A DNA stretch of 64,000 bases from Verrucomicrobia bacterium UBA3841 (GTDB taxonomy: Bacteria; Verrucomicrobiota; Kiritimatiellia; RFP12; UBA1067), in assembly GCA_002392765.1 (NCBI GenBank), contig DGHT01000022.1:1324-65323 (forward strand), written 5' to 3'. Positions 6,552 to 39,093 of this stretch are shown here, in pieces; the stretch's first letter is position 1, and every line of letters begins with the position of its first letter. Position numbers and translations under genes: made by a program. The notes beneath the pieces are model-generated. The model searched no databases. It was not told the DNA's origin and saw only the letters and a program-made list of their open reading frames with translations.

Positions 6552-6589
6552 TGTGGTATTTTTCTCTCGCAGAGGCGCAGAAATGGCGT
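6552..6589. repeat. Left half of dispersed element Y, split by prophage insertion
   Basis: tgtggtatttttctctcgcagaggcgcaga..atggcg matches 60326-60370. Continuity resumes at 39089. Confidence 0.85.
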
Positions 6590-6590
6590 T
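6586..6590. repeat. Target-site duplication, left copy (gcgt or gcgtt)
   Basis: gcgtt at 6586-6590 equals gcgtt at 39089-39093. The uninterrupted paralog has one copy (60368-60372). 4 bp if the phage starts TG at 6590, 5 bp if it starts at 6591. Confidence 0.75.
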
Positions 6591-6790
6591 GATTTATGCA
6601 ATGAGATTTGAGAAAGTGCGAAAAAGTGAGAATTTCCGCGAGATTGTGAGATTACCCCCGTTTCTACGGGGCTTTTCTCATTTTAGGCGCGGCGCGCGAT
6701 CCGCGCGATCGGCCGCCGGGCAAATTGAGAATCGCGGCGGGCGGATGGCCGCTGAAATTGACAAAGTATCAAATTGTTGAGAATATCAAC
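6590..6790. repeat. Prophage left end: terminal inverted repeat and subterminal GAGAAT repeats
   Basis: TGatttatGCAATGaGATTTGAGAAAG matches the reverse complement of the right end. GAGAAT/GAGATT cores at about 6628, 6648, 6727 and 6779 are candidate transposase-binding sites. Confidence 0.7.
6656..6684 (+). terminator. Putative intrinsic terminator facing into the prophage left end
   Basis: ccccg-tttcta-cgggg hairpin followed by cttttctcatttt. Would block host read-in. Confidence 0.4.
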
Positions 6791-7024
6791 TTGCCTTGAC
6801 ATGGAGTTTGCAAGGTAAAAGAAAGCCCCCTGCAAGTGGATTGCAGGGGGCTTGAATTGTTTATTCAGGGCGTCTATTTTTTCACGCGCCTTTATCATCC
6901 GATCGGCCTCCTGTGCCTCTCGTGTCCACCATGCCCGAGCCTCGGCAGAAGTGGCGGTTTGGGAAAAAAGCTCGGCCTCTTTGCGGAGGTGATACAACCC
7001 TGCTAGAGTGACTTCAATCGGCAT
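6683..7024 (-). CDS. Hypothetical protein, last gene of the early operon (C-terminus uncertain)
   Basis: The N-terminal roughly 55 aa look like a real coiled-coil sequence. The 3' half reads through a 13-bp-stem hairpin, so the true end is doubtful. Confidence 0.35.
   Translation of the reverse strand: MPIEVTLAGLYHLRKEAELFSQTATSAEARAWWTREAQEADRMIKAREKIDALNKQFKPPAIHLQGAFFYLANSMSRQVDILNNLILCQFQRPSARRDSQFARRPIARIARRA
6813..6853 (-). terminator. Putative intrinsic terminator of the early operon
   Basis: aagccccctgcaa-gtgga-ttgcagggggctt perfect 13-bp stem (6823-6853), followed on the minus strand by ttctttta. Confidence 0.5.
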
Positions 7025-7475
7025 GGCGGCGGAGGTGCGTCTTGAGCATGGCGAGGAGGCGGCGGAGCTGCGGGTTTGTGAGGTCGAGCCAGCCGGAGTC
7101 GGTGGCTAGGCGGGCAGCAAGTGTGGGCTGGTCGTAGCCGCGCACCGTGTGCGACTGGATCATCACGCCCGCCACGTAGTTGAGCGCGTTGTCCGGCGCT
7201 ATCTCCAATGCCGCCTCCATTATCAGGTGGCGGATGCGCGCAGTCGTGGCAAGGGAGTACTTGATGGCGGCTAAATCGTCGCCGGCGTCGCGGCTTATGC
7301 GCGCCATGAGCTTGTCATAGCCGGCCGTGGACGAAACCTGTGAAAGGTGTTCGACGCCAAGCTCTTCCTTGAGTATCCGCTTGCGATAGACTTCCGGATC
7401 TTCACCGGCCTCGAATGCGGCCGGGCGAATCATCCTGAATAGTGCCTTGCGTTGATTAGGTGTCATAGGAGTCAT
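7014..7475 (-). CDS. GemA/Mu gp16-like protein (DUF1018-like)
   Basis: QRKALFRMI...DPEVYRKRILKEELGVEHLSQVS..YDKLMARI resembles the gp16 family pattern. Sits at the distal end of the early region as in Mu. Confidence 0.45.
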   Translation of the reverse strand: MTPMTPNQRKALFRMIRPAAFEAGEDPEVYRKRILKEELGVEHLSQVSSTAGYDKLMARISRDAGDDLAAIKYSLATTARIRHLIMEAALEIAPDNALNYVAGVMIQSHTVRGYDQPTLAARLATDSGWLDLTNPQLRRLLAMLKTHLRRHAD

Positions 7476-7907: not shown

Positions 7908-8373
7908 TTGGCACCTCCTTTTGGATTATTGGTTTTAACGTCTTGAGGAGTACTTGCGCAAGGGTGTTTTCTGCTGGCACGTTCGCCCGGAGACGCTGCC
8001 AACTCCGGGGTGGCATGACAGCAAACTTTTCGAGCAGCACGGACTCTTCCGGCGAGAATCGCCATGGCGAAGCTATAAGGATTGCGCAACACGTCGCCGA
8101 AGAGCTTCCAGCATAATCAAAAAGAAAGTCGCGGCGAACGCTGCCTGGCTTCCAATTATTGTTGCTTGAGCACTGGTGCCAGACGCGATACGCCGGAGCG
8201 GACAAAACAGCCTCGACGAAGAACGCCCCCGTCACTCTCTGCACCGGCGCGCACTCGTACATGAATACGACCGATCCGACAGATGGCGAGCTTTTCCGAA
8301 ACTCGACCGTCTTCTTGCCGCTGTATAGCTCTTTCGCCCACTTGGGCTTGATGCTCATCAAACAAATATTCAT
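7900..8373 (-). CDS. ASCH-domain protein
   Basis: MNICLMSIKPKWAKELYSGKKTVEFRKS...PPRSWQRL fits the ASCH beta-barrel pattern. The start overlaps the HD gene stop. Confidence 0.6.
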   Translation of the reverse strand: MNICLMSIKPKWAKELYSGKKTVEFRKSSPSVGSVVFMYECAPVQRVTGAFFVEAVLSAPAYRVWHQCSSNNNWKPGSVRRDFLFDYAGSSSATCCAILIASPWRFSPEESVLLEKFAVMPPRSWQRLRANVPAENTLAQVLLKTLKPIIQKEVPNA

Positions 8374-8921
8374 CGTGCCACCTCGATTCCTGGTTTGTCG
8401 CATCCCTCGCACTCGCTCGTCTCCTCAAATATGGACGCCAGATGGTCGGCGGCGTGCGTGAAGATGATAGGGACGGGCCATTTGCGGAGCGCAGCCTTGT
8501 ACTCGGCCATCTGACGCTCGTCAAGCCCGAACGCGCCCATGTGCCACACTATGGCGGCTCTTTCAACCGGATCCAGCCGGATGCCGATATCGGCGGCTAT
8601 CATCGCGCTTGCGACGCCGTGCCCCGGATACGGTGGCTGTGTGTATTCGTACTTGCCGTCACCGACGGCCTTGTAGCACAGGCACTTCACCAGGTCGTGG
8701 TACATGCCGATCCGATAGGCCGACACCTCCGACACGGCGTGCGTCTCAAGCAGGATTTCGGTCACGCGCATCGAATGTTTCGCCAAACCACCTGCGACGG
8801 CGAGGTGGTGGCCTTTTGACGCCGGTGCGTCGAAGTAGCCGATCTCCTTCAGGGCTTCAAACACCGAAAGCGGCTGATCTGTCCGCTCCCAATACTCGTT
8901 AATCCTCTCTTGATCAATCAT
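8370..8921 (-). CDS. HD-domain phosphohydrolase
   Basis: KGHHLAVAGGLAKHS and MYHDLVK (H...HD) motifs. Start MIDQERI at 8921 preceded by AAGGAGGA. Confidence 0.65.
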   Translation of the reverse strand: MIDQERINEYWERTDQPLSVFEALKEIGYFDAPASKGHHLAVAGGLAKHSMRVTEILLETHAVSEVSAYRIGMYHDLVKCLCYKAVGDGKYEYTQPPYPGHGVASAMIAADIGIRLDPVERAAIVWHMGAFGLDERQMAEYKAALRKWPVPIIFTHAADHLASIFEETSECEGCDKPGIEVAR

Positions 8922-9032
8922 TGTGATCCTCCTTGAAAATAAGCCGGTCTCCGTTGTCATCTTACCCAGGGCGCCGACCGGCGAACGCTCTGGCGCAGCC
9001 GCACCCTCCTAGATGTGCGGCGGGGGTTTAAA

Positions 9033-9614
9033 CTACTTCACCTGCTCGTCGGCGATGGGTTCGATCCAGAACTCGTCCGTCTGCTCCATCGAGATTTCGT
9101 ACTCGTCGAGCACGGCCTTCTTCGCCTGGGCCTTGGCGACGACCTCCGGATCCTCGCTCTTGAGGTCGCGGAATACGTCAAGGATCGCTTCCTTGTCGAC
9201 TTCCGGCTGATTCCGTACAAACTGCTTGAGCTTGTCGATGCCGTCAAAGATAAGTCCGAGCGCCTTCCACGCGACCTTCTTGAACTTGCCTGCCTTTGTG
9301 ACGGTCGGCATGCCGAGCCGCACGCCGAAGTTGGCGAGCTTGGTGGACCCGCTGCGCCGCCCAGGCGCGCACAGCTCGCCCGCGTGCGCTTCGAAATACG
9401 GAGCGGCGCGTTCGTGCGCAGTCTTGATATCCGCCTCGAGCGCCTTGATTTCCGCGCCGAACTTGTCGTCGATCTCCTGGTGCCGAGCCTTGAGCGCCGC
9501 GACCTTCTTCTCTCTCTGGACGCAGCACTTCGCCGCCGCGTCCACCGCCTCTTCGAACTCGGCGCGCGTCGCGCACACCGGGATCTTCACTGCCTTTATC
9601 CTTGCCATGTTCAT
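9033..9614 (-). CDS. gam: Mu Gam-like host-nuclease inhibitor
   Basis: MNMARIKAVK..TRAEFEEAVDAAA...KVAALKARHQEIDDKFGAEIKALEADI..YFEAH fits the Gam family layout. Lies downstream of the transposition genes. Confidence 0.7.
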   Translation of the reverse strand: MNMARIKAVKIPVCATRAEFEEAVDAAAKCCVQREKKVAALKARHQEIDDKFGAEIKALEADIKTAHERAAPYFEAHAGELCAPGRRSGSTKLANFGVRLGMPTVTKAGKFKKVAWKALGLIFDGIDKLKQFVRNQPEVDKEAILDVFRDLKSEDPEVVAKAQAKKAVLDEYEISMEQTDEFWIEPIADEQVK

Positions 9615-9748
9615 TTTCCTTTCTTTGCGGGTTTGGTTGATTTGACTGTTCTGTATTTGCATTCAAGCTGCGTGACGCCTGCGAAGAGTAGGCACTTGCC
9701 CTTCTTGTGCCACTTGCAGGATGTGTTTGCGCACTTGACCTCCTGCAT
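9611..9748 (-). CDS. Small Cys-rich protein (45 aa)
   Basis: MQEVKCANTSCKWHKKGKCLLFAGVTQLECKY... with four Cys. Translationally coupled between the MuB-like stop and the gam start. Below the track's size cutoff. Confidence 0.4.
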   Translation of the reverse strand: MQEVKCANTSCKWHKKGKCLLFAGVTQLECKYRTVKSTKPAKKGK

Positions 9749-9749
9749 G

Positions 9750-10817
9750 TCACACCTCCTCGAACTGCGAACGGTAGACAGCGCGGAAACTCTCCCAGTT
9801 GAGAGGATGCCTCTGCTTCGACCGGTTGTTGCCGCTGCACCAGCTCGCGGTGAGCGCGAGGCACGACGTGAGACGGTTCATCCTGATGTTCGAAAGGATT
9901 CCCTCGACACACTCGGTCGAACCGCCGATGCCGTACGCCTTCGCCGCGAGATCGATGTCCTCGGCCGGGATGCGGTTCGGAAGCGTCACCACCCTCTGGC
10001 ATCGCTGGTCAATCTGTACGAGCCATCCCTTCATTCTGGGATCGTTGATAAGATCGTCCTCAAGCGACTTTGTGCCGCACAGCACCATGCCGCATCCGGA
10101 ATTGTCCCATATCTCGCGAATCCACTCGACGACCTTCATCGCGGTGCCCTTCCCGCCGGACATTACCAGCTCATGCAGCTCGTCAATGATGAGGAGCGTA
10201 TTCCGCCCGACCGCCTTCGCGACGCGCTGCCGCGCTTCGTCCACCCTGATCGACGAGCCGACGCCTACCGCCTCGGCGACCGCCGCGATAGCCAGCTTCA
10301 TCGTCGGAGCCGCCGGAATCCTCACGTAGCACACCTGCTTGTTGGACCGGCGCATGTACTCTTTAAGGCAGTATGTCTTTCCGATCTGCGACGGCCCCAC
10401 GAGCCGCACGATCGCGTTGCGCGTTATCGCGAAATTGCAAAGCCCGCTGACGCGCGTCCAGATCGAGTTTTCGATAAATCGATCCGACTTCATCTTGGCG
10501 CGCTCCGCCTCCAGTTCAAGGTAGTTGTTGATTTGCGACACAACCTTGTCTAGCGCGCCTTCGTACTTGCCCGCGAAGAGCCGCGACAAGGTCGCGCCCG
10601 AATACTCGACAAGCGCGCCTGTCTGGTCGAACGAATATCCGCGCTGCTTGCCGAGGTTGAAAAGCCGGATTATGCTCTCGAGGCCCTCGTCGGTAATCCG
10701 CCCCGCGTCCACGTAAATGCGGCATGTAGCCCTCACCTGGTCCGCGCTACGGTTCATGCCCTGGCTTGGTGTCGCCGGCACAAGGTCGCTCACGACCTCT
10801 GGTATGATTATGCTCAT
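9750..10817 (-). CDS. MuB-like DNA transposition AAA+ ATPase
   Basis: N-terminal HTH-like segment (YSGATLSRLFAGKYEG), Walker A GPSQIGKT and Walker B LLIIDELH. Immediately downstream of the transposase. Confidence 0.85.
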   Translation of the reverse strand: MSIIIPEVVSDLVPATPSQGMNRSADQVRATCRIYVDAGRITDEGLESIIRLFNLGKQRGYSFDQTGALVEYSGATLSRLFAGKYEGALDKVVSQINNYLELEAERAKMKSDRFIENSIWTRVSGLCNFAITRNAIVRLVGPSQIGKTYCLKEYMRRSNKQVCYVRIPAAPTMKLAIAAVAEAVGVGSSIRVDEARQRVAKAVGRNTLLIIDELHELVMSGGKGTAMKVVEWIREIWDNSGCGMVLCGTKSLEDDLINDPRMKGWLVQIDQRCQRVVTLPNRIPAEDIDLAAKAYGIGGSTECVEGILSNIRMNRLTSCLALTASWCSGNNRSKQRHPLNWESFRAVYRSQFEEV

Positions 10818-10847
10818 TGTATTTTCCTCCTGTGTGTTGTGTTTGGT

Positions 10848-13055
10848 TTAGTCAATAAAATCGTCATGCGGTATCAGAGGCTCCTCGCCTTCGTCGAGGT
10901 CGCCTATGTCAGCGCCCTCTTCGCCCGGCACGTCGTCCGGATCGAGCGTGACGTCCGCGCCTTCGACTCCCGCAAGCTCGCCGCGCTGCCGCTCTTCGAG
11001 TTCCCGGCGCTCCACCGGATCCTCGACCCCGAGCGCGGCGAGATTCGCCGCCGCGGCCTCGTTGCGCTCCTTGAGACGCGCCCTGACAACCGGCTCGAGC
11101 TTCGCCTTGGCGTCCGCGAGCGCCGCGCTGCGAAGACCCAGCTGCTCCTGGAGCGCCGCAACGTCCGCGTCCGCATCGGCGCGAACCGCCGGAATCGACT
11201 TTGCAACCCCGAGGAAACGCCCTTGCAGGTCGCATACATACGCCTTGCCGCAGTCCATCGGATTGACCCAGACATGCAGCTTCATCCCCCGCGGAAGCGG
11301 CTTGCCGTCGATGATCGCGGCAACGACATACCTCTCGCCCGTCTCGGCATCGCGCACCGTCACCGTCAGTTTGTCGCCGACCGTCCCAATATGCGCCAGC
11401 TCCTTTCCCAGGATCATCGGAGCGAACGCCGGCGAGACGCTCTCGAGCTTCGCGGCCTTCGTCGCGCTCGACCACGCCTCCGCCGGACTCATCCGGCGCT
11501 CGCGGTACATCGCCGCGCCGGACGCGACAAGCGCCCTGACCTGCGCGGCCCTCTCGGGCGGGAGCGCCGCCATGCGCGGCATCGCCGTCCAGTGCGGCAT
11601 ACCGGCAACCTGCATTTCCCCGACCATAAACCCGCACTCCTCCCAGCCCTCCAGCTGGTGCTCCGTCCGCTCGTCCATGCGCCTGTGCGCATCATCGACC
11701 GCGACCGCGAACGCGCGCCACGTCGGGAAGTTGAACCGCAACCCGCTCCCCGGCGTCGCCGGAAGCGCTTCCGCCAGCCTCATAAGCGCCGCGTCCTCGC
11801 GCACCATGCCGATCGTCTCCTCGGGCTGGACGCCCCGCCCGCCGCCGATGTTGCCGAAGATTGCCGCGTCGGTGTAGTTTTTGAGCGTCGCATGCATCTG
11901 CTCTATCATCCCCTTGTGCCGCGGGTTGCCGTGGTGCTGCACGTCCGGCAGTCCCTTCGCAAGCGGCTCGGTTATAATCGAGCCCGCCCGGAATACAACC
12001 GGCTTGCGCCCCGCGCCCTCGCGTACCGCGTTGATCGCGGCGAGCGCCGCGCCGAACGTGTCGTCCGCCGACGCCGTACCGTGCTCGCCCTTGATTACGC
12101 AACCACCCTCCGGCACGCCGACTACACAAAGCAGATAATGGTATAGATACCTCACCCACGCGCTTTTCAGCGTCTTCCTGGTGCCGTCCTCCGCCTCGAC
12201 AACCGGCTTGGCAAGATGGCATATCACATGCCCCGTGAGACGGTCCATCGCCGCGAACTCGACGACCCGCTGCGGCTTCGCGTTCCCGCCGAAGATCACC
12301 ATGTGCTCGTACCACATGTCGTCCACCTCGACGACCTGGCACGGCAGGAGCCCGACGCGCGTCATCCTCACCGTCGGCAGGAAGTCTATCTTCGCCTGCC
12401 CAAGCCCGATCCGCGCCGCCTCTAGCGAGCATTTGTCGGGCTTTAGCGACATCAGGTTCCGGAGCGACCATCCGGGCGGAGGGTTGCGCTCCGACCAAGG
12501 ACACGGCTCGCCCTCAGCCGGACGGTAGCCGTGCACGTTGAAATAGATGTCCTGCCATTTGCCGAACCCGGGTATGGTGTCGCCGGTGGCGAGATCCCTC
12601 ATCAGTTTCACCCAGGCCGGCTTTACCTTCCGCTTGCACGAGAGGACCCGCGCGTGCCAGTCGGCCATGAAGGCATCGTTGAACGCGAGACCGTGGCCGG
12701 ATACACGGTTGGCGATTCTCATGTCGACGGCGCCCCAGACATCGACGACAACGGTCATCCTGCCGTTGCGGGATTCCTCCCTGAATACCCTGGCGCATTT
12801 CCGGTAGAGGCTCTTGAGCGATATGCCGCCGATCCCCAGCCGGTCGAGCCGCGCGGCGATCTCGTCGGCGCACCGCGCCTTGTCGGCGGAGAGCCGGAAT
12901 ACGTTGAGCGCGTCGACGAGCGACAGAGTGCGCCGCACTTCGTCACCGGGCAAGAGTTCGAACAGCCGGTCGATGTCGGCCTTCGGAATCAACGGCTTGC
13001 CTCTGCCGGAGTCTTCCGGCAGCGGCGCGGCCGGGGCTGCAATCAGTGTTCCCAT
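10848..13055 (-). CDS. MuA-like DDE transposase
   Basis: 735 aa with an rve-like core (..VVEVDDMWYEH.., ..SADD.., ..HKGMIEQMHATLKNY). Start MGTLIAAP at 13055 after AAGGAGA. Confidence 0.8.
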   Translation of the reverse strand: MGTLIAAPAAPLPEDSGRGKPLIPKADIDRLFELLPGDEVRRTLSLVDALNVFRLSADKARCADEIAARLDRLGIGGISLKSLYRKCARVFREESRNGRMTVVVDVWGAVDMRIANRVSGHGLAFNDAFMADWHARVLSCKRKVKPAWVKLMRDLATGDTIPGFGKWQDIYFNVHGYRPAEGEPCPWSERNPPPGWSLRNLMSLKPDKCSLEAARIGLGQAKIDFLPTVRMTRVGLLPCQVVEVDDMWYEHMVIFGGNAKPQRVVEFAAMDRLTGHVICHLAKPVVEAEDGTRKTLKSAWVRYLYHYLLCVVGVPEGGCVIKGEHGTASADDTFGAALAAINAVREGAGRKPVVFRAGSIITEPLAKGLPDVQHHGNPRHKGMIEQMHATLKNYTDAAIFGNIGGGRGVQPEETIGMVREDAALMRLAEALPATPGSGLRFNFPTWRAFAVAVDDAHRRMDERTEHQLEGWEECGFMVGEMQVAGMPHWTAMPRMAALPPERAAQVRALVASGAAMYRERRMSPAEAWSSATKAAKLESVSPAFAPMILGKELAHIGTVGDKLTVTVRDAETGERYVVAAIIDGKPLPRGMKLHVWVNPMDCGKAYVCDLQGRFLGVAKSIPAVRADADADVAALQEQLGLRSAALADAKAKLEPVVRARLKERNEAAAANLAALGVEDPVERRELEERQRGELAGVEGADVTLDPDDVPGEEGADIGDLDEGEEPLIPHDDFID

Positions 13056-13086: not shown

Positions 13087-13812
13087 TTAGACCTTTTCAA
13101 GTCGTTGCAGCGCCGCTTCGGCGTCGCTGCAAAGCGACTTCAGGATGCTGTGCGCCTCGGCGAGCTCGACGAGGTCGAGATGGTCGATGACGTGGTGGTC
13201 GCGCTGCGCATCCTGGAGCGGACGCAGATGGTCGCGGACCGTCGCCCATGCAGACGACGCCGTCTCGGCCACCTTGTCGAGCTCTACCATCTCCGCTTTG
13301 CCCGATGCCTCGCCCTTCGGCTTGCGGCCCTGGCCGCGACCAGGGCCGCCCCAGCTGTTGCCGTCTTCGTTCTTAATGCGCTTGACGATGCCGAGGTCGA
13401 TCATCGCCCTCGTCGCGCTCTTGTCTTCCATCCCAACCGTCGCGGCGGAGAGTTCAGTGACTGTCGGCTTTTTCGAGATAGGTATCTCCGCCGCAGTCCT
13501 CATCACACCGACCGTCCTCGTGAAAAACTGTATATACCGGTCGGCGGTGAAGCGCGATATTTGCAGATTTTTGTCGCACCATTCGACCCAGCCTCCGTAG
13601 CCGATGGCCTGCTTCTGCTTGGCGAGTTCCCACCCGGCAAGTATCAGATGGGCAAGCGCCTGGCGGCCGTGGTGCTGCGCCATGCCGACGTGGTAGTTGA
13701 TGCGCTCGCCTGGCGTGTTGTAGTCCGGCTCATTGATGTCGCCCAGCGGCGGCAGTCCTTCCGGCGCGATCGGAGCGACGGGAGCAGGGAGATACTTCTT
13801 TGACTTTTTCAT
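13087..13812 (-). CDS. DUF3102-family protein
   Basis: ..LILAGWELAKQKQAIGYGGWVEWCDKNLQISRFTADRYIQFF.. matches the DUF3102 core pattern (G..L...K......G.W..W......S..TA..YM). Confidence 0.6.
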   Translation of the reverse strand: MKKSKKYLPAPVAPIAPEGLPPLGDINEPDYNTPGERINYHVGMAQHHGRQALAHLILAGWELAKQKQAIGYGGWVEWCDKNLQISRFTADRYIQFFTRTVGVMRTAAEIPISKKPTVTELSAATVGMEDKSATRAMIDLGIVKRIKNEDGNSWGGPGRGQGRKPKGEASGKAEMVELDKVAETASSAWATVRDHLRPLQDAQRDHHVIDHLDLVELAEAHSILKSLCSDAEAALQRLEKV

Positions 13813-14727: not shown

Positions 14728-14800
14728 CAAGGAGATGGGTATCCCCCGGCCTCAGGCCATCCGCGAAGCGGATGCCCTAGCAGGGGTGCGTCCCGCTCCG
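14728..14800. repeat. Palindromic element X (three stem-loops incl. GCGAAGC mini-hairpin) with CAAGGAGATG left boundary
   Basis: caaggagatg-ggtatccccc-ggcc tca ggcc-atccgc gaa gcggat-gccct agc agggg. About 55 bp nearly identical to 22994-23050. Confidence 0.85.
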
Positions 14801-16176: not shown

Positions 16177-16189
16177 TTTTGGAGGCCGA

Positions 16190-30554: not shown

Positions 30555-30565
30555 CGAGGATCGCC

Positions 30566-31102: not shown

Positions 31103-31625
31103 GATATCCGAATCGGATCTGGCCGACCTGCTGCCAAGCGAAAACAAGCTTGCGCAGGCCGCTGGCCGCGGCGTATCCAATGCGGTCAAGCGACATCTGG
31201 CGGAACGGGACTCCAGGGCGAGGCCTGACGACGGAATGCCGCATACAGGTTATTACGGAGATGCGGCGGGAGGCGTCACTACCGACGTATCCGGCAAGAT
31301 GGCGGTTGTCACGATTCACAAGGAGGGTGTCGCGCTGCACTATTACGGCGGCGTCGTATATCCGACGAAAGGACACAAAGCGCTTGCCATACCGAAAAGC
31401 CCGGCGACAGCGGGAAAGCGTCCCGCCGAAATCGATCCCGACCGTTCGCGGTTCGCGCTCGTATGGCCCAAGGGAAAGACCGTTGGAACGCTGCGCGACA
31501 AAAAATCCGGGGACATAGTGTATCTGCTTGTCAGCAAGGCGACGATTAAAGCAGACAAGACCATCCTCCCGACAGAGGACGAAATGTTCGAAGCCGGCAA
31601 GTCCGCGATGGAGGCGATACTATGA
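31074..31625 (+). CDS. Virion morphogenesis / HK97 gp10-like protein
   Basis: Adjacent to the MuF-like gene. ..SNAVKRHLAE...VTTDVSGKMAVVTIHKEGVALHYYGG.. The start could be 31074 or 31086. Confidence 0.3.
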   Translation: MWLQMHLTLKISESDLADLLPSENKLAQAAGRGVSNAVKRHLAERDSRARPDDGMPHTGYYGDAAGGVTTDVSGKMAVVTIHKEGVALHYYGGVVYPTKGHKALAIPKSPATAGKRPAEIDPDRSRFALVWPKGKTVGTLRDKKSGDIVYLLVSKATIKADKTILPTEDEMFEAGKSAMEAIL

Positions 31626-32758
31626 CCGAAGCGGAGCTCATACTTCAGAAAGCGCTTGTCGGATCCGATCTGGATTCCTCGCAGTGGAACCAGATACAGG
31701 CGGGCTTCAGGAACCGCGCGTTCTTCTCTTCGCGCGTCGCCGAGGTCAACATCCTCGCGGCAATGCGCGAACGTGTTGCAAAGTACGCCGAGGGCGAAAC
31801 CGATCTCTCGAAGATTCGCATGATGATCCGGGATGACCTGCGCAGGGCGAACTACTCTCCAAAGCCCGGCGAGGAAGGCACGATCCACGACCTCTTCAGC
31901 CAGGCGCGGCTTGACGTCATCATCAAGACCAACGTCGCGCAGGCTCGCGGCTACATGCAGTTCGCGGAGGGAATGAGCCCCGGCGCGTTCGCCGCGTTTC
32001 CCGCGCAGGAATTCATGCGCGTACGCTATTCGCGGCACCCGCGCGGCGACTGGCCGCAGCGATGGGCGAAGGCTGGCGGCAAGGTTTACGGCGGCAAGAT
32101 GATCGCCATGAAGGACGACCCGGTATGGGAGCGGCTTTCGGTATTCGGCAATCCGTTCCCGCCCTTCGACTGGGGCAGCGGCATGGGCGTCCTCGATGTG
32201 GACCGCAAGACCGCGATCCAGCTCGGGCTAATCAGCGACGAGGAGCTGCGCGGCAAAACCGCCGCGCTCCGCGAGAAGCCCGTGCCCGACTTCAACGCCA
32301 ACCTGCAGGCGACCGTGCCTGTGCCGAACCTCCGGCACGACTCGCTCTGCGGGAAGATACTCATAAAGAACTTCGGCGACCAGGTTGCGATTGAGAACAG
32401 CGTCGTCAGCTGGCAGGGGAATCTGATTCAGGACGTAATCGCCGGTCGGCGCAAGAAGGCGCAGCTTGGCGTCGGATACAACGGCCGCCCCCTGCCTCTT
32501 TCGCACAACTTCTTCAGGGAACACCTCTCGAAGCACTTCGGCGACAACGAGACAAACCCGCAATCCATCCCTCTGACGGTCGGGGACTACGAGCTGCTGC
32601 CGACAGTGTGGCGCAGCCCGGACAGGGTGACAAAGAGCCGCGACCGCGACCATCTTGAGTTCGAGACGTTCGATGGCGGTATCCTGCATCTATTCGTCTC
32701 TGACATCAAGGGCATAAGGAGTTTCTACAAAACGAAATCCGGGAGGAGCCTGCAGTGA
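31622..32758 (+). CDS. MuF/SPP1 gp7-like head morphogenesis protein with C-terminal nuclease-like (PBECR-type) extension
   Basis: MuF-like core (..IIKTNVAQARGY...RVRYSRHPRGDWPQRW...PFPPFDWG..), then about 150 aa with ..HNFFREHLSKHFGD..LTVGDYELLPTVWRSPDRV..LEFETFDGGILHLFVSD..IRSFYKTK. Confidence 0.55.
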   Translation: MTEAELILQKALVGSDLDSSQWNQIQAGFRNRAFFSSRVAEVNILAAMRERVAKYAEGETDLSKIRMMIRDDLRRANYSPKPGEEGTIHDLFSQARLDVIIKTNVAQARGYMQFAEGMSPGAFAAFPAQEFMRVRYSRHPRGDWPQRWAKAGGKVYGGKMIAMKDDPVWERLSVFGNPFPPFDWGSGMGVLDVDRKTAIQLGLISDEELRGKTAALREKPVPDFNANLQATVPVPNLRHDSLCGKILIKNFGDQVAIENSVVSWQGNLIQDVIAGRRKKAQLGVGYNGRPLPLSHNFFREHLSKHFGDNETNPQSIPLTVGDYELLPTVWRSPDRVTKSRDRDHLEFETFDGGILHLFVSDIKGIRSFYKTKSGRSLQ

Positions 32759-32853
32759 GTCGCACACACGACTCGCGCCTTTTGGCCAAGCTGCAGCTGA
32801 ACGCCCGGACACGGATATAATACCATAAACCACTTCAAAAAGGCAACAGCAAA

Positions 32854-33282
32854 ATGAAGATCAAGGAATTCCAGGAAGCGATAGCCGACGAGTTGAACGG
32901 CATTGACGAGCTTGTTCAGGGCGGATGCAAGGCATTTGCAGAGGACTCCCGGGAAGTCTACAAGGGGTCCGACCAGCACGTCCAAAGCGGGAAGGTCGCC
33001 ATTGTCGTGGTGACGCCGGAGATGACAAGAAACGGCTGCTCGTCCGATGCCATTTCGGCGGAAACGCAGCTGCTTATCCAGTGCAGCGAAAAGCCAATGG
33101 TGGCGCGCGCCCAGCCGGGCGTCATAACCGCGCTCGACGCGGCGGAGATCGTCATGTACGCGCTTGACGGCTCGCAGTTCTGCTGGCTCGATACGCGGCA
33201 GACGCTCGACCGGCAGGCGGGCGTTCTGACTGCTACAGTCACTTTTGCGACATCGATGTCATTCGAGAAGTGTAAAGTGTAA
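32854..33282 (+). CDS. Hypothetical head-tail joining/tail terminator-position protein
   Basis: 142 aa upstream of the tube gene. Call is by position only. Confidence 0.3.
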   Translation: MKIKEFQEAIADELNGIDELVQGGCKAFAEDSREVYKGSDQHVQSGKVAIVVVTPEMTRNGCSSDAISAETQLLIQCSEKPMVARAQPGVITALDAAEIVMYALDGSQFCWLDTRQTLDRQAGVLTATVTFATSMSFEKCKV

Positions 33283-33320
33283 AATTGCGGTATCAAGGAG
33301 ATGGAGCATCTTGTTCCGTC
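33270..33320. repeat. GTGTAAA x2 plus truncated cloverleaf-family copy
   Basis: gtgtaaagtgtaaa (33270-83), then caaggagatg-gagca tct tgttc-cgtc.. (33294-) without the right terminal repeat. Confidence 0.8.
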
Positions 33321-33356
33321 ACCAACCGGAAAAAACAAAACAGAAAGGAACAAACA

Positions 33357-33728
33357 ATGCCGATAACACCAGCATCGGTCGACGGAACCTGGGGCGTGTC
33401 GAAAACGCTGTCCGGGTACACGATCGAGTCGTACAACGAAACAAAAAACCCGGTCAGGGAAACCGTCCCGGACCAGTACAACCGCGTAGCGAAGGAAATC
33501 CGCTACGATACGCGCTGGGACCTGCGCATGACAGTCCGCGGCAGTGCTGCGCCGTCCGACGTCTCGATCTCGTTCAACAGCAACACGTACATAGTCGACA
33601 GCGTCGAAGAGGCCGGGCAATACAACGGGCTGCTGCGCTACAACATCACGGCGCACCGTTACGAGAACTGCAATGCGGAAACGGCCATGTCAGCCGGATC
33701 GTCGACACCAGCCGGATCGTCGACATGA
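33357..33728 (+). CDS. Putative major tail (tube) protein
   Basis: 123 aa immediately upstream of chaperone and tape measure. Start MPITPAS after AAAGGAAC. The C-terminus carries an 18-bp x2 repeat (SAGSSTPAGSST, 33693-33728). Confidence 0.4.
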   Translation: MPITPASVDGTWGVSKTLSGYTIESYNETKNPVRETVPDQYNRVAKEIRYDTRWDLRMTVRGSAAPSDVSISFNSNTYIVDSVEEAGQYNGLLRYNITAHRYENCNAETAMSAGSSTPAGSST

Positions 33729-34275
33729 GCAGGCTGAATCCCGATAAAGCGATGGCGGCGCTGATGCCGCTGCCGATCGAGATTGCGCCGGGCGTTGAGG
33801 TGAGGCCTGTGACTCTCGGCATGTGGGCCGCACTCGAGCGCATAAAATCCCCGCTCGTCACAGGCGAGGAGCCGAAGGACACGCTGGAGCTCATCCCGTC
33901 ACTCTACCTCCTTACGCACGATCCGCGTATTGTGCTCAATGGCGGGCTGCTGGAGGCCGCGATGGCCTGGGCGGACACTCTGCCGGTGACGGCGATGGAC
34001 GCCATACAACGCGCCTGCAACAAGCATATAGACGCGGCACTTGCTGTAATCCCTCAAAAAAAAACGACGGACCGCGCAGGCATTCAGACGGATTCATCGC
34101 CCGTCTCGTCGACTTCGCCGCGGCAAGGTACGGGTGGAGTTTTTCCGAAATCCTCTGGGACGTGCCAATGTCGGCGCTCTACCTCCTTGAAAGGCAAGAG
34201 TGGCTTGACAAGGACAAAATCTTCCCGCTCAGTGCGATAGAGGAGATTGACAATGGCAAAGAAGCTGAAAGTTGA
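33725..34275 (+). CDS. Tail assembly chaperone with -1 frameshift (G/GT-like)
   Basis: Frame 0 is 33725..34240. At A AAA AAA (34057-34063) a -1 shift continues as ..KKNDGPRRHSDGFIARLVDFAAARYGWSFSEILWDVPMSALYLLERQEW.. to 34275. The frame-0 tail after the slip site is S/T/R-rich and looks non-coding. Confidence 0.55.
34056..34064 (+). promoter_or_regulatory. Slippery A9 run (candidate programmed -1 frameshift site)
   Basis: ccc tca aaa aaa aac: nine consecutive A, unique in this GC-rich context, at the chaperone frame switch. Confidence 0.5.
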
Positions 34276-35194
34276 AGTCGAAACAGACACGCGGCAGGCG
34301 AAGAGAGAACTAGCGGACCTGGCGAACGGTGTCGATTCCGGCGGCGCGTCCGACCAGGCCGCCTCTGCGGCCAAGCGCTTGGCGCAGGGCGCGGATGCGG
34401 CGGCGAAATCGTCGCGGCAGCTGTCGCAATCGGCTTCTGAAGGCGCGGCGAGTTTGAAGGCGACCGTGAAGGTGTTCGGCGGCATGGCCGTCAGGATGGC
34501 CGCGTCGGCGGCAGCGCAGTCGCTACCGGAAGGTTCGACTGCCCGCACGACGGTGGATGCCGCCGGCGGCGCGATTGCGGGTGCCTTGCAGGGCGCGGTC
34601 GCAGGTCCGATCGGAGCGGTTGCCGGCGGGCTAATGGGGCTTACAAGCGCCCTCATGCAGGCCAATGCGGAGGAAAAGGCCAGAAAGGACGCCATCCTCG
34701 CCACGAATGCCGCCAACCGCGAACAGCTGGAGGCGATGTGGAAGGCGGAAGACCGCACGGAAAAGTTCAAAAAGCAGCTCGATGAACTGTCGAAAATCGA
34801 GGATCCTGATTTGCGCAGGGAGCGCTTGACGTCCGCATTGAAAGAACGCGAAGTGAACGGGATGAATGAGAGCGACACGAAGCTGTTCAACGCCTCCTCC
34901 AATTTCGCGGGAGAGGGTGGCGACAAGGCGTTCCGGGAAGCGCTGACGGAGCGTAGCGCGCTCAAAAGCGAAATATCGCAGCTCAAGGCGCTGCTGGAGC
35001 AGCCTGAAGCCCGCAAATCGGGAGGCGGCGGGAGCAGCCGTGAAAGCATGTCCGCTTTGGACAATCTGTCCAGGCTTGGCGCGTCATTCGGCGGCGATTC
35101 GGGGCGCGACATGCTCAATGTACAAAAAGACCAGCTGGAAGTTTTGAAGTCGATTGACCGCAAGTCGACTTCGGGAGGTGCAACATGGCAATAA
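34253..35194 (+). CDS. Tape measure protein (short, 313 aa)
   Basis: GAGGAG 8 nt upstream of ATG 34253. Coiled-coil rich with a Gly/Ala hydrophobic segment (AGGAIAGALQGAVAGPIGAVAGGLMGL). Follows the chaperone. Confidence 0.6.
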   Translation: MAKKLKVEVETDTRQAKRELADLANGVDSGGASDQAASAAKRLAQGADAAAKSSRQLSQSASEGAASLKATVKVFGGMAVRMAASAAAQSLPEGSTARTTVDAAGGAIAGALQGAVAGPIGAVAGGLMGLTSALMQANAEEKARKDAILATNAANREQLEAMWKAEDRTEKFKKQLDELSKIEDPDLRRERLTSALKEREVNGMNESDTKLFNASSNFAGEGGDKAFREALTERSALKSEISQLKALLEQPEARKSGGGGSSRESMSALDNLSRLGASFGGDSGRDMLNVQKDQLEVLKSIDRKSTSGGATWQ

Positions 35195-36042
35195 CAGTAC
35201 CCTCGGGTTGTTATCGGCAACCGATAGAGCAGGAAGGCATAGACGCGTCCGGCGCAAAGACGTTTAATTACGTGCTTAAGGGCCCATATTCTTCCCTGCA
35301 GACTTTCAAGAACAGTCTGACGGGCGGGCAGGAGATTGAATCCGGGTGGGGGTTCGCGTCCGCCATGCTCAACCGCAATCCTGGCGGTCTGGGCACATTG
35401 ACCATAACATGCAAACCGATCGCAGATGGAGAATCAGGCGGCGGGTCCGATGCGTCCACAACGCCACTAGATGAAATATGGCAGATTAAATCATGCCGCA
35501 ACGACATGTCGGTTTTAGCATATTGCGGCAAGGGTCCGTCAAATCCATGCCGGGAATGGATCGAAGCATGGATGAAAGAGCCCGACGGCGAGCTGGCGAA
35601 GGCCGACTCGTTCAGGAAGCCTGACGGTGAAGTTTTTGCCATACTTGCTGGGTCGGAGGGTTCATCGGAGAGTTCAGGAGCCGAAACCCGCGGGCAGGCG
35701 ACCGTCGAGGTCATGGGCAAGTTGCGGGAAGGGAAAGAATCGGTAATGCGGTTTTATCCGATGCTGATTTGCACCAAGATATATTCCGTCGCCCCGGCTT
35801 CAGTGTACGAAAATCTCTCTTATATAGACACGCCAAACCCCGGCACGACCACCAAGAAGCCGGGAAATCTATCAACAATCATCAGCAATCACGAGTGGCT
35901 TAAATGCCAAGATGATTGCGAACAGATGCAAAACGGAAACTGGCGGCGCATCCAGGCCTGGATCGGCGCGCCCTCCTGGGACGACAATTTCTACGGCACC
36001 GCGAACCGCTGGCCCATGCCATACTCGCACAGCAACAGCTGA
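35185..36042 (+). CDS. Hypothetical tail-tip protein (distal tail position)
   Basis: Overlaps the tape-measure stop. 285 aa. No recognised motif. Confidence 0.4.
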   Translation: MAITVPSGCYRQPIEQEGIDASGAKTFNYVLKGPYSSLQTFKNSLTGGQEIESGWGFASAMLNRNPGGLGTLTITCKPIADGESGGGSDASTTPLDEIWQIKSCRNDMSVLAYCGKGPSNPCREWIEAWMKEPDGELAKADSFRKPDGEVFAILAGSEGSSESSGAETRGQATVEVMGKLREGKESVMRFYPMLICTKIYSVAPASVYENLSYIDTPNPGTTTKKPGNLSTIISNHEWLKCQDDCEQMQNGNWRRIQAWIGAPSWDDNFYGTANRWPMPYSHSNS

Positions 36043-36048
36043 AACCCG

Positions 36049-36080
36049 CCTTCAACTTTTCAACCTTTCAACTTTTCAAC
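36049..36080. repeat. 8-mer array YTTTCAAC x4
   Basis: cttcaac ttttcaac ctttcaac ttttcaac. Same family and orientation as the right arm of the 25803-25895 hairpin. Confidence 0.9.
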
Positions 36081-36086
36081 CGTTAA

Positions 36087-36761
36087 ATGATACAAATTCC
36101 GCAGAAAGGAGAACCGCTTCGAGCCGATTGGGCCGCCCAAATCACGGGCCGCGTCAACTCGTTGGCGCCGATAGGCTCGCCGAGGATGCTGGTTCGCGAC
36201 GGCATTGGCGGCTTCGGCAGCGAACCGTGTCCGCCAAACCACCGCGACAGGCGCGGTATCGCCAGCAGGACGTCGCCGCCAGGTTGCTTCGAGCTTGTTG
36301 AGCGTACTGTCACGCGCAATAACATTTCGTTAATCGAACATTTCTTCGTCAATCAATACTACATGGTCGGAGACCTTTTGAAAAAATGCTCGGTGATTGA
36401 CGGGGAAGTAGAATCAGAACAGTTTGTCATTTCTTTGGAATCGATCCTGCTTTCATCTATCGGCGAGAATGTGCAATCTGGAGAAATAACATCATGGGTA
36501 ATGCTCCAGATAGATGCACGGGGCGATGCCTATCCAAGGGGCAATGGCGAGACGGAGGAAAACGACGAGGCTTCTCCGCAAATTAAAATATTTATGGATT
36601 TCAACGAGGTTGAAGAATGCCAGAGAGACCTCGACTTTCATACTATACCCCTTTTCATAGTGCAATTTCAATACGTTGCCGAGGAAGAGGTCATTAAAGG
36701 GCTGGAAATCACATGCGACTTTCGCCGTGGTCTCTTTGGCCAGCAAGTGGAGCTTATATGA
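36087..36761 (+). CDS. Hypothetical tail-tip protein
   Basis: 224 aa. GC content drops visibly within this gene, from about 36300 onward. Confidence 0.4.
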   Translation: MIQIPQKGEPLRADWAAQITGRVNSLAPIGSPRMLVRDGIGGFGSEPCPPNHRDRRGIASRTSPPGCFELVERTVTRNNISLIEHFFVNQYYMVGDLLKKCSVIDGEVESEQFVISLESILLSSIGENVQSGEITSWVMLQIDARGDAYPRGNGETEENDEASPQIKIFMDFNEVEECQRDLDFHTIPLFIVQFQYVAEEEVIKGLEITCDFRRGLFGQQVELI

Positions 36762-39007
36762 GATTGATTGTGATCCTGTTCGCGCTTATATACCGATCTG
36801 CAATGGGTATCATGTCGCAAAACGCAACATTGTTTTTCGGAGGCGATGCAACAAACAAATTGCCGGCATTCGTAGATTCTTATGGATATTTCGACTCGTC
36901 GGTCACAAACCGCCGTCCAAGCTTGCGGATATCGTCCTCGGTTGCCGCCGCAGTACTATCAACTGCCGGAGGAATCCTGCAGCGCCACATCCTCGCTGTG
37001 GAGCCGGAAAGACTGAATATCGATAGGTTTGATGCCGAATATTTCAGGACAAACGATTTTCTGGGGTGTATCTACGATTGCGACAAATATGCTGCGGCAT
37101 CGAATCGCACGGTGGAACTGTGCAGAATTACAGGGGATTATCTGGAGTACGCATTTGACATGTTTCGGAGTGCAGTCAATATCGGCAATCCCAATGGGTA
37201 TACCTGGGATGGTTATAGAGACGGAGATTACCTTAGGAATCCATTTGGCTGGGGTTCATCTGTACTAGACAACTACATTATAGCACTTAATGCACCCTCT
37301 GTCTTGGAAGCCGCCGAGTCAGAAGGTAATCCTGAATTATTGGAGTACAACCCCGAGTTTCCCGAATGGGACTGGCGTGAAGGCAGCGCCTGGCAATGGC
37401 GAACACCAGGGCAATGGGCATATACATGGCCAATGCTTTGCTATTGCAATGCTGATGGATTCATTATTAGCACCAACACATCGTTTCGCCCGCCGGAGAC
37501 CATTCTGAACACCTATGTAATTCCTCTTTCCAATTGGTGGACGGGAGAGAATTTTCTGCGAACAAACCCTCCTGTTATGCGCAGTGTAGAAATTCCTCGG
37601 CTCCTTGCAAGTCGATATGTCGACCGTCCCGCCTCGAACTACAATGTCAATATCACAAGCAATTTGATTAATACCAGCCGCATGTCCCATGCGAAAGCCG
37701 GTGCAATTCAGTATGCTGTTGCTATGATGGACAGGCTTTACGGTCAAAGTTTTGGTTTTAGGTTTTGGGAAGGTAAAGAGCAGTACGCATTACGAGGTGT
37801 AGACTATGGCGGCGGGATCACTGTCGGCGAAGGTAATTGGCAGTTCATAGCGAAAGAACGTCTTCCTGGCGCTTTTGTCGGAACCATGTCAATAAACCAG
37901 TCGCTACCGTGGGGAGACCCTCACCCCGTATGGATTCAGGAAGACACCACTAATTTTCCAAGCCACAATGAATTTACAATGGAGACTCCTTTCTACTCCT
38001 GTTCTGGCATCCACCATGGTTACGGAGGGATTGTGTCAGCATCCCAAGGTCTCGTCGTCCCGTTTGAGGCTCTTCAGAGTTTGATTTTGGGCATAGGTCC
38101 GCCAGGCACTTACGAGATATCACTTGAATTGGTCGCTCCCGACACCGTCACAATATCGGCGTGGGGATCGTCTAGGTCGTGCCGCGCCGACCTAGACGAT
38201 CTCTATGTTAGTTTTGGCGTAAGCGGCGCAGAAAGCACGTTCGTTGTTTATCCTGGCAATGTCATTTCAAATGCAAACCCGTACGTGCACTGTTCTGTTG
38301 GCGTGGGAGGAGACGGACACTGGCTGTCCGGGAAATATCTGTGGTCAATGATTGAAGCCGATGTATATTCATTTGACCGCATGGAGGTTTATGGGGAGTA
38401 TACATCTGCCGGAGGCCTTGATTTATTAGGACAACCGGATCAGGCGTCAATGTTCGATTATGGCCTGAGTGTTTACACGAATTATGTAGAGTATACTCGC
38501 ATCCGCAAACTTCGAGACGGCATTAATAAAGGGGCAAAATCCATTCACAATGTTTCAAATATGGTACTCAATGCGGCTGACAATCTGAAAGCCCAAGCTA
38601 GATCTCAAATATCCCAATTGATAGGAGGCGATATCGAGGATCTTAGATCGCTCCTTGTCGTTGACAATCGCGAGATAACGAATCTTCGCGGTCAGATTGA
38701 CGGCGCAATCGCTTCGTTGCCGGCTCGCTCGGCTTTGTATATGTCCAGCTTTACTTGCTCATGCGACAATCCGGGCGGCCCGTATACTGTCACATACCGT
38801 ATTGACAGCGAGGGATCGGCAATACCTGTCACCCACACCCTTGTTATGACACCAGGCACTGTACTGTCCGTCGGCTCAATATCCGCCGACTTCGTTCCAA
38901 CCTCGAGCAAGGAAGGAAGCACCCCGCCAGCATCGGTGTATGCTACGCAGTATTTCCCGACGCGCTATAGATTTAGCCTTGACACCATCAACCTACCTGA
39001 GGATTAA
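36758..39007 (+). CDS. Large tail fibre / receptor-binding protein candidate
   Basis: 749 aa and the last gene before the right end (the Mu fibre position). AT-richer than the phage backbone. ATG 36758 overlaps the upstream stop. Confidence 0.45.
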   Translation: MRLIVILFALIYRSAMGIMSQNATLFFGGDATNKLPAFVDSYGYFDSSVTNRRPSLRISSSVAAAVLSTAGGILQRHILAVEPERLNIDRFDAEYFRTNDFLGCIYDCDKYAAASNRTVELCRITGDYLEYAFDMFRSAVNIGNPNGYTWDGYRDGDYLRNPFGWGSSVLDNYIIALNAPSVLEAAESEGNPELLEYNPEFPEWDWREGSAWQWRTPGQWAYTWPMLCYCNADGFIISTNTSFRPPETILNTYVIPLSNWWTGENFLRTNPPVMRSVEIPRLLASRYVDRPASNYNVNITSNLINTSRMSHAKAGAIQYAVAMMDRLYGQSFGFRFWEGKEQYALRGVDYGGGITVGEGNWQFIAKERLPGAFVGTMSINQSLPWGDPHPVWIQEDTTNFPSHNEFTMETPFYSCSGIHHGYGGIVSASQGLVVPFEALQSLILGIGPPGTYEISLELVAPDTVTISAWGSSRSCRADLDDLYVSFGVSGAESTFVVYPGNVISNANPYVHCSVGVGGDGHWLSGKYLWSMIEADVYSFDRMEVYGEYTSAGGLDLLGQPDQASMFDYGLSVYTNYVEYTRIRKLRDGINKGAKSIHNVSNMVLNAADNLKAQARSQISQLIGGDIEDLRSLLVVDNREITNLRGQIDGAIASLPARSALYMSSFTCSCDNPGGPYTVTYRIDSEGSAIPVTHTLVMTPGTVLSVGSISADFVPTSSKEGSTPPASVYATQYFPTRYRFSLDTINLPED

Positions 39008-39009
39008 AT

Positions 39010-39088
39010 AAGTTTGCAAATCTCTTGCAACCGCATTGCACATTCTCGACAACTTGATTCTTTATCTCAAATCCCATTGCGTTTTACA
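39010..39088. repeat. Prophage right end (terminal inverted repeat, ends ...CA)
   Basis: Reverse complement TGtaaaacGCAATGgGATTTGAGAtAAAGaatcaagttgtcGAGAATgtg aligns with the left end. Confidence 0.7.
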
Positions 39089-39093
39089 GCGTT
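39089..39093. repeat. Target-site duplication, right copy
   Basis: gcgtt directly after the terminal CA (39087-39088). Confidence 0.75.

Follow-up and report, generated by a model that had tools for sequence, protein, structure and literature searches.

What decides where a transposable phage of the Mu type enters its host genome? Mu is the textbook example of near-random transposition, MuB is regarded as a non-specific target activator, and targeted insertion in this superfamily is ascribed to extra Tn7-like selectors (TnsD/TniQ, Cas). The question is raised by a prophage in a 64,000-nucleotide stretch of Verrucomicrobia bacterium UBA3841 (contig DGHT01000022.1, positions 1,324 to 65,323), hereafter the window. 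The prophage covers window positions 6590-39088 (32,499 bp) and is an intact temperate transposable phage of the Mu type in a gut/rumen Kiritimatiellae chromosome. Comparison with related contigs shows, as far as such sequences can tell, oriented, recurrent and independent insertion of its lineage upstream of the promoter of the host gene mraZ. The only early gene that co-varies with the mraZ location encodes the ATPase, and we infer that this protein is the target selector. Taken by itself, the prophage is ordinary for its poorly annotated lineage; what surprises is a locus and orientation specificity that tracks the ATPase.

The host features at this locus, and the partial phage ends found at the corresponding loci of relatives (given L numbers), are the following.

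5932-6417, minus strand: host mraZ (Pfam MraZ), followed by rsmH at 4981-5916 (Methyltransf_5) and ftsI at 2616-4535 (Transpeptidase)
6412-6457, minus strand: host mraZ promoter and conserved box, TTGCAA-17-TATAAT, then GTGGCAAGAAATGTCA
Relatives, own contig coordinates: partial left-end copies in L005 (16416-16550), L011 (14871-14926), L042 (4427-4536), L060 (about 5880-5930) and L061 (about 5148)

The ATPase lineage was defined as the relatives whose ATPase is 46-92% identical to that of the window, and it comprises 16 distinct junctions. Fourteen of these lie upstream of mraZ, one is nested in the end of another copy and one lies elsewhere, while none of five loci with other ATPases is at mraZ (loci were counted when at least 150 bp of flank was available). 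All loci with an ATPase at least 81% identical and a usable left flank (window/L033, L001, L004, L005, L009, L010, L011, L029, L037, L045 and L051) are directly followed by mraZ-rsmH-ftsI in the same orientation, and the location recurs at 61% (L060) and 46% (L063, L064) ATPase identity. The transposase-proximal end faces mraZ in 14 of 14 cases, with the early operon co-directional with mraZ. The original prediction for this DNA had led to an expectation of scattered, Mu-like insertion; instead, the lineage keeps to one locus. Rumen and gut metagenome-assembled genomes, with the labels Kiritimatiellae, Verrucomicrobia or Lentisphaeraceae, are the source of the homologues.

Within the locus, 17 distances (the 14 junctions and three nested end remnants at the same loci) span 51-225 bp upstream of the -10 box. 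The junctions fall into groups at 51-110, 152-163 and 220-225 bp, the window insertion being at 152 bp. The mraZ core promoter is never disrupted, the nearest junction lying about 25 bp upstream of the -35 element. A promoter block, GGTG..AAAGTGTATAATnGTGKCAnnAAATGTCA (in short form GTGTATAATnGTGKCA..AAATGTCA), is conserved at all 14 host loci and occurs once in the window. Left-end remnants of 14, 46, 55, 95 and 134 bp remain between prophage and mraZ in L042, L060, L011 and L005, and record repeated insertions into one small interval. In L061, the right end of a phage is inserted 31 nt inside the left end of another copy. Together, the remnants and L061 imply that tandem or nested copies form, apparently with little or no target immunity near the ends.

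The following features define the element's ends and its target.

6586-6589: left copy of the target-site duplication GCGT, mapping to the single GCGT at 60368-60371 of the paralogue
6590-6613, plus strand: left terminal inverted repeat TGATTTATGCAATGAGATTTGAGA, an 18/24 match to the reverse-complemented right end
6603-6783, plus strand: left subterminal sites, a terminal GAGA[AT] cluster and inner sites at 6727 and 6779 (TTGAGAAT)
39020-39088, minus strand: right end, with the terminal inverted repeat at 39065-39088 and GAGA[AT] at 21, 42 and 65 bp
39089-39092: right copy of the target-site duplication GCGT
60326-60475, plus strand: uninterrupted paralogue of the host repeat split by the prophage

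The original prediction, that of a complete transposable prophage of the Mu type whose ends and target duplication can be placed exactly, is supported, with relatives sharing the left boundary. The left junction reads ..AAATG[GCGT]TGATTTATGCAATGAGATTTGAGA, with TG at 6590-6591, and the right one ..TCTCAAATCCCATTGCGTTTTACA[GCGT]TTGCGGG, with CA at 39087-39088. Read inwards, the termini TGATTTATGCAATGAGATTTGAGA (left) and TGTAAAACGCAATGGGATTTGAGA (right) agree at 18 of 24 positions without any shift in register, and both junctions stand as they had been drawn, TG..CA with imperfect inverted repeats. The GAGAAT-type subterminal repeats were likewise recovered, as GAGA[AT] clusters at both ends. 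At the left end they start 14, 21, 39, 51, 59, 138 and 190 bp in (window 6603, 6610, 6628, 6640, 6648, 6727 and 6779), and at the right end 21, 42 and 65 bp from the terminus. For comparison, TGAGAA occurs 15 times on the plus strand of the window, four of them at most 190 bp from the left end. In relatives, the TTCTCAAC sites keep their spacing of about 137 and 190 bp from the terminus, and the right end of relative L061 starts with TGTAA and carries GTTGAGAA sites at two positions matching those of the window.

Joining 6552-6589 to 39089-39191, an alignment that had been proposed as a check, rebuilds the contiguous repeat at 60326-60470, with 95% identity over the right part and one 8-nt indel in the left part. 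The GCGT copies at 6586-6589 and 39089-39092 both align to the one GCGT at 60368-60371. Given the TG..CA ends, the target-site duplication is 4 bp, GCGT, in a single instance judged against the paralogue. The left termini of relatives mostly read ...TCA and in a few cases ...ACA, each abutting an unrelated flank; therefore, the terminal T of TG belongs to the element. The predicted duplication, gcgt(t), holds in its 4-bp form and not in its 5-bp form, which would need the element to start at the G at 6591. In L063, L064 and L065, whose ATPase is 46% identical to that of the window, the left terminus reads ...GTATCT rather than ...CA, and three different flanks follow the same last base. No integrase-type domain was found by family scans in any open reading frame (ORF) of at least 250 amino acids (aa), and tRNA and Rfam scans of the window gave no match, in line with the predicted lack of an integrase and of a tRNA attachment site.

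The right flank of the prophage is the 3′ end of a 2136-aa multi-domain glycoside hydrolase gene (39301-45711, minus strand), with GH127-like, GH3 C-terminal, Fn3-like and NAGLU domains. The split host repeat, of about 150 nt, has no Rfam match and lies just 3′ of minus-strand genes (6552-6589 with 39089-39191; 60326-60502), namely this glycoside hydrolase gene and ORF 60578-62308. The hairpin at the end of the repeat, CAAGGAGATGGAGC...CATCTCCTTG, is also found inside the prophage (18075-18133), after ORF 17652-18107, at 86% identity. The possibility that mraZ-ftsI is phage cargo was considered and rejected, because their divergence follows host rates and both the sister lineage and the paralogue fix the left end.

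The identities of phages and hosts do not run in parallel. The phages of L009, L010 and L011 share 91-94% identity in transposase and ATPase, and sit in hosts with only 48-52% identity in FtsI and 64-69% in RsmH. In L005 and L029, it is the hosts that are close (FtsI 85%, MraZ 96% identical) and the transposases that are distant (72%), and the junctions differ despite near-identical host flanks. In further near-identical flanks, the junctions are 58 bp (L037/L051) or about 145 bp (L063/L064) apart. The incongruence of phage and host identities, together with differing junctions in near-identical hosts, shows that the insertions are independent and not inherited. In the window, the repeat split by the insertion is still 95% identical to its paralogue, which likewise counts toward independent insertion. 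The early regions are also mosaic among relatives.

Three adjacent early genes are needed for the question of what tracks the insertion site.

10848-13055, minus strand: transposase with MuA/TnsB fold, 735 aa from the ATG at 13055; the ORF extends to a TTG at 13100
9750-10817, minus strand: MuB-like AAA+ ATPase with N-terminal helix-turn-helix region, assigned by Pfam, PHROG and fold; candidate target selector
9611-9748, minus strand: small Cys4 ORF of 45 aa directly after the ATPase, MQEVKCANTSCKWHKKGKCLLFAGVTQLECKYR.., kept in most relatives

Sister phages whose transposase is 72-77% identical and whose left end is about 80% identical to those of the window, and which carry an unrelated ATPase of 329 aa, are found at other sites. 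L023, L024 and L026 represent one phage with three different flanks, and L027 is a further site away from mraZ; L003 and L013 also differ in flank. Loci of a clade whose transposase shares 50% and whose ATPase shares 25-31% identity with those of the window are likewise scattered over other places. A DNA module at 9602-10852, 84-85% identical to other mraZ-type phages, covers the ATPase and the Cys4 ORF. The latter is called as a gene in L033, and the relatives carrying it include some that are not at mraZ. On two metagenome contigs, L049 and L053, an ATPase of the mraZ type (82-83% identity) is paired with a transposase from the other clade (about 50% identity), and neither flank was reached.

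The ATPase matches Pfam AAA_22 (E 7e-15), TniB (E 1e-8) and PHROG 296 (E 8e-34), and in tblastn the ‘B transposition protein’ of Vibrio Mu-like phages (22% identity, E 7e-8). Its AlphaFold model, which was predicted with database homologues, has a predicted local distance difference test score (pLDDT) of 87. The best Foldseek match of the model is the MuB filament 8xvb (template modelling (TM) score 0.82, root-mean-square deviation 2.9), followed by TnsC. The MuB-like ATPase of the original prediction is therefore borne out by AAA_22, TniB, PHROG 296 and the MuB fold. An N-terminal helix-turn-helix region spans residues ~25-81, with a weak HTH_31 match at residues 57-85.

The transposase matches PHROG 310 ‘transposase’ (E 3e-17). 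The best Foldseek matches of its AlphaFold model (pLDDT 69) are the MuA transpososome 4fcy (E 4e-12), the MuA core 1bcm (TM 0.64) and TnsB, at about 12% sequence identity to MuA. An exhaustive profile search places it in a family of 856 clusters at 50% identity, and none of 33 sampled members has a Pfam match. Without exception, 33 diverged members share residues D245/D246, E324, K381 and E385 (numbered as in the 735-aa protein). In a marginal hhalign alignment, D245 stands opposite MuA D269, and E324 lies in the stretch aligned around MuA D336. The second catalytic acidic residue thus seems to be a glutamate (E324), where MuA has an aspartate. Searched by tblastn, 50,697 deposited phage records gave no match to the transposase or to two distant members of its family. 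The closest deposited phages reach at most 26% identity in the ATPase and at most 22% in the portal protein, and IMG/VR holds one related contig, broken within the ATPase gene.

Taken together, we consider it probable that the element is a transposable phage with BcepMu layout, that the lineage carrying this ATPase inserts in one orientation upstream of mraZ, and that the ATPase, once brought to the mraZ promoter block or to MraZ, directs the transpososome there. In such a mechanism, a DDE-type transposase of MuA/TnsB fold would bind the GAGA(A/T) sites at both ends and join the CA-3′ termini to a staggered target cut, which would give the 4-bp GCGT duplication. The MuB-fold AAA+ ATPase would deliver the target DNA, after recruitment to either the conserved promoter/operator block or MraZ on that block. 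The N-terminal helix-turn-helix region of the ATPase would be the likeliest recruiting part, possibly assisted by the neighbouring Cys4 protein. From this position the ATPase could steer the transpososome to DNA nearby, much as TnsC acts in Tn7-like elements once TnsD or TniQ has recruited it. An ATPase assembly that varies in length would account for the variable distance better than a fixed Tn7-like complex would. A stricter version, in which a two-protein machine of MuA and MuB fold targets locus and orientation with no TniQ/TnsD-like selector and the ATPase itself reads the mraZ promoter/operator or bound MraZ, is possible and is put forward here only tentatively.

Several observations weigh against this reading. 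The evidence for targeting is comparative only and comes entirely from metagenome contigs, and the right flank and the duplication were observed in the window's element only. A search for the right ends of relatives via the late protein at 34247-35194 found it poorly conserved, with none of 55 homologues on long contigs. A true empty site was not found in a sister strain, the exact MraZ sequence being present only on prophage-carrying contigs; a search via the exact 2136-aa glycoside hydrolase found that sequence not on record. The insertion distance varies from 51 to 225 bp, unlike in Tn7. The phage of L063 and L064 also occurs in L065, there within an ABC-transporter gene; targeting is therefore a strong preference, or one of two pathways. 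L065 and the contigs that stop at or just past the phage end (L018, L024, L026) hint at less specific replicative transposition during lytic growth. Furthermore, the transposase has no sequence match in Pfam (E <= 0.01), NCBIfam or the PDB (phmmer and a 17-sequence profile), and hhalign gives marginal values for both MuA (E 0.054) and BcepMu gp09 (E 0.066). The MuA-profile search named in the original prediction as a possible refutation formally failed for these three collections, so that the MuA-like transposase stands on PHROG 310 and the predicted fold and not on Pfam, NCBIfam or PDB sequence profiles. Within the phage, no tail protein was recognizable in the late region by Pfam, PHROGs or NCBIfam. 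The ATPase has no extra domain relative to the non-targeting types. Finally, Cys4 homologues occur in L027, away from mraZ, and in L031, where the flank was not reached, and the Cys4 ORF is absent after the ATPase in L063, which sits at mraZ. This distribution leaves the ATPase a candidate selector.

This last point bears on whether the phage is targeted to mraZ by something other than the ATPase, for example the Cys4 protein, a part of the transposase, a late-region gene, or a regional property of the DNA such as the AT-rich stretch that precedes a strong promoter. The module shared among mraZ-type phages does include the Cys4 ORF beside the ATPase, the ATPase has no added domain, MuB prefers AT-rich DNA, and the comparison among relatives covered the early genes only. 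We nevertheless regard a different selector as unlikely. The Cys4 ORF is missing from L063 at mraZ and has a homologue in L027 elsewhere, and the transposase and left ends are common to phages that scatter. AT-richness as the sole targeting cue was rejected, as it explains neither the single orientation nor the several insertion points in GC-rich DNA (window, L004).

Two further explanations do without targeting altogether. In one, the insertion upstream of mraZ is ancient and has been inherited vertically, possibly in domesticated form, which would account for one locus and orientation across many species, for the good conservation of the phage genes and for the failure to find an empty site. 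It is very unlikely given the incongruent identities of phages and hosts (L009/L010/L011, L005/L029), the shifted junctions in near-identical flanks (L037/L051, L063/L064), the mosaic early region and the target repeat still so close to its paralogue, and intact ends with nested copies point to ongoing activity. In the other, the element would be an ordinary, randomly inserting Mu-like prophage, and the mraZ location would be a coincidence or the result of selection, after insertion, for a harmless or beneficial site. This is in keeping with the MuA/MuB-type machinery, with the L065 copy carrying the same ATPase in an ABC-transporter gene, with the spread of positions over about 175 bp and with the lack of a visible target consensus at the junctions. 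It, too, is very unlikely, as 14 distinct junctions share one intergenic stretch of about 175 bp and one orientation in hosts with FtsI identities down to 45-50%. Sister phages with other ATPases scatter in the same host class, and harmless sites are therefore plentiful; moreover, selection accounts for neither the single orientation nor the nested remnants. Recruitment through the ATPase to mraZ remains our preferred reading.

The early operon lies on the minus strand and runs toward the left end, in the order Ner/Cro-like ORF, small ORFs, DUF3102 protein, transposase, ATPase, Cys4 ORF, Gam, HD protein and three unknowns. Besides the genes given above, the early region and the repressor side contain the following features.

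15909-16079, minus strand: Ner/Cro-like small helix-turn-helix ORF, 56 aa, first early gene, from reading of the translation
13087-13812, minus strand: DUF3102 protein upstream of the transposase (Pfam DUF3102 E 3e-5), in the same position in relatives
9033-9608, minus strand: Gam-like DNA-end protection protein (Pfam Phage_Mu_Gam E 3e-10, PHROG 491 E 9e-13)
8370-8960, minus strand: HD-domain phosphohydrolase-like accessory gene (PHROG 5889 E 6e-13, PHROG 28876, Pfam HD E 0.0011)
7014-7475, minus strand: conserved early ORF, 153 aa, in GemA position, present in nearly all relatives, no Pfam match
6683-7024, minus strand: last early ORF, 113 aa, in the Mor/C position of BcepMu, by position only
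6823-6853, minus strand: terminator-like hairpin at the end of the early operon, 13-bp stem and T tail on the minus strand
16190-16540, plus strand: candidate repressor of the XRE type, transcribed away from the early operon (NCBIfam RstR-family repressor E 1.5e-12 and other XRE models)
16545-17243, plus strand: low-GC accessory ORF, 232 aa, adjoining the repressor (GC 0.48 in 16-18 kb)

A perfect TTGACA-18-TATAAT promoter (16159 to 16130, minus strand) precedes the Ner/Cro-like ORF, and a promoter-like site for the repressor candidate is found at 16073-16101 (plus strand). The RstR-family match of this candidate is below the curated NCBIfam cutoff. Between the divergent promoters, CCA(A/G)ATTGGAATATT motifs are repeated in 16100-16190, and are probably repressor operators. 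The 232-aa ORF, which may be an accessory or defence gene, matches nothing in Pfam, PHROGs and NCBIfam, and none of the relatives has a counterpart of it. The Gam-like protein is called as 191 aa in L033, and the HD-domain gene has a mosaic distribution among relatives. For the ORF in GemA position, the original assignment is consistent with its position and with a weak BLASTP match to BcepMu gp02 (E 0.005), and finds no backing in Pfam. The last early ORF has no family match in Pfam or PHROGs, and no similarity to BcepMu gp01. Two copies of a direct repeat of 57 nt (89% identity) lie in the early region (14738-14794) and in the C-terminal extension of the portal ORF (22994-23050).

The late genes point toward the right end.

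19343-21349, plus strand: large terminase (PHROG 2 E 5e-20, PHROG 5909 E 6e-17); ORF bounds, the true start probably being later
21304-23283, plus strand: Mu-type portal, DUF935 (Pfam Portal_Mu E 1.6e-44, residues 93-415), with a ~240-aa C-terminal extension without assignment
23359-24405, plus strand: Mu I-type head protease/scaffold (Pfam Mu-like_Pro E 1.7e-7, PHROG 328 E 1e-15)
24640-25800, plus strand: major head protein (PHROG 1005 E 2e-10)
25900-39007, plus strand: remaining late genes (head completion, tail, fibres), about 13 kb, weak matches only

From the intact ORFs and the head module, we infer that the element is complete as a phage. Of the gene content in the original prediction, Gam, the DUF935 portal and the Mu I protease are confirmed by Pfam and PHROG matches, while MuF was not detected in Pfam, PHROGs and NCBIfam scans. 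The claim that no sheath gene is recognizable is correct, but the same three collections recognized no tail protein of any kind. The weak late matches are to Phage_Mu_Gp36 (E 0.0017, 25900-26361) and PHROG 220 (E 7e-5, 31622-32758). Right after the stop of the major head gene, at 25801-25895, there is a long inverted repeat whose opposing arms, (GTTGAAAA)n and (TTTTCAAC)n, consist of 8-bp units. The same unit forms an array with a single arm at 36051-36080, just upstream of ORF 36087-36761. The pattern TTCAACYTTTCAAC has 10 occurrences against 0.02 expected, and the repeat unit at both places resembles the subterminal transposase-site motif TTCTCAAC. The repeat could be a terminator, an attenuator or an internal transposase-binding element. 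Late ORF 28780-29388 contains a near-exact tandem duplication of 48 nt (29012-29107, 98% identical, 16 codons).

If the preferred reading is true, target specificity can reside in a MuB/TnsC-type ATPase or be recruited directly by it. In the stricter version, the two-protein machine would be a natural intermediate, carried by a phage, between random Mu and Tn7-type targeted transposition. The natural chimeras, with the same transposase and ends and different ATPases, would then form a comparative system for the evolution of Tn7-like targeting, and the compact targeting module would be testable for genome engineering. In addition, the 856-cluster transposase family escapes curated profiles, and such prophages are currently annotated without integration genes. 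In a published analysis, a similar Verrucomicrobia region was interpreted as a defective prophage (PMC6920513). A survey of Tn7 target selectors does not have mraZ among the attachment sites it discusses (PMC10293859). Neither a Mu-like phage specific for one locus nor an mraZ attachment region was reported in any text found by full-text literature searches. For BcepMu-like phages in particular, we know of no report of locus specificity.

In its organization, the prophage is closest to BcepMu. The original prediction had noted a layout unlike that of Mu, with an inverted early operon and an inner repressor; this is correct, but the layout is that of BcepMu and not a new one. Both phages have the early operon on the opposite strand, running toward the left end in the order transposase, ATPase and accessory genes. 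Both have a divergent cI/XRE-type repressor about 9 kb in (about 9.6 kb here), late genes toward the right end, and a DDE transposase with an AAA+ partner and no integrase. The proteins themselves are different: there is no detectable similarity in the transposase (the hhalign value given above) or in the gene at the Mor position, and only the weak match noted for the gene at the GemA position. Moreover, the BcepMu transposase is annotated as Tn552/rve type, whereas that of the window has no Pfam domain, and the tail genes of the window are unrecognizable.

With Mu, the element shares the TG..CA termini, the site arrangement (spaced as in L1/L2/L3 and contiguous as in R1-R3), the MuA-fold transposase, the MuB-fold ATPase, Gam, the Mu-type portal and the Mu I-type protease. 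It differs in the duplication, 4 bp in its single instance (5 bp in Mu), in the inverted early operon, and in a transposase that is distant from MuA and has none of the Pfam MuA domains (DDE_2, Mu-transpos_C, HTH_Tnp_Mu, rve). Insertion in the window lineage is specific for locus and orientation in 14 of 16 junctions, while that of Mu is nearly random.

This specificity brings the lineage closer to Tn7-like elements, which combine TnsB and TnsC with TnsD/TniQ selectors and, in the case of attTn7, insert beside glmS. In structure, the transposase is related to TnsB and the ATPase to TnsC (the next-best folds after MuA and MuB), the ATPase matches Pfam TniB, and insertion is oriented beside a conserved region of essential genes that is left intact. 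Unlike Tn7-like elements, however, the window element is a phage with head genes, and none of its scanned ORFs has a TnsA, TniQ/TnsD, TnsE or Cas domain; the ATPase is followed only by the 45-aa Cys4 ORF. The distance to the target is fixed in Tn7 and ranges over 51-225 bp here, and where Tn7 shows target immunity, the phages upstream of mraZ insert repeatedly and into one another.

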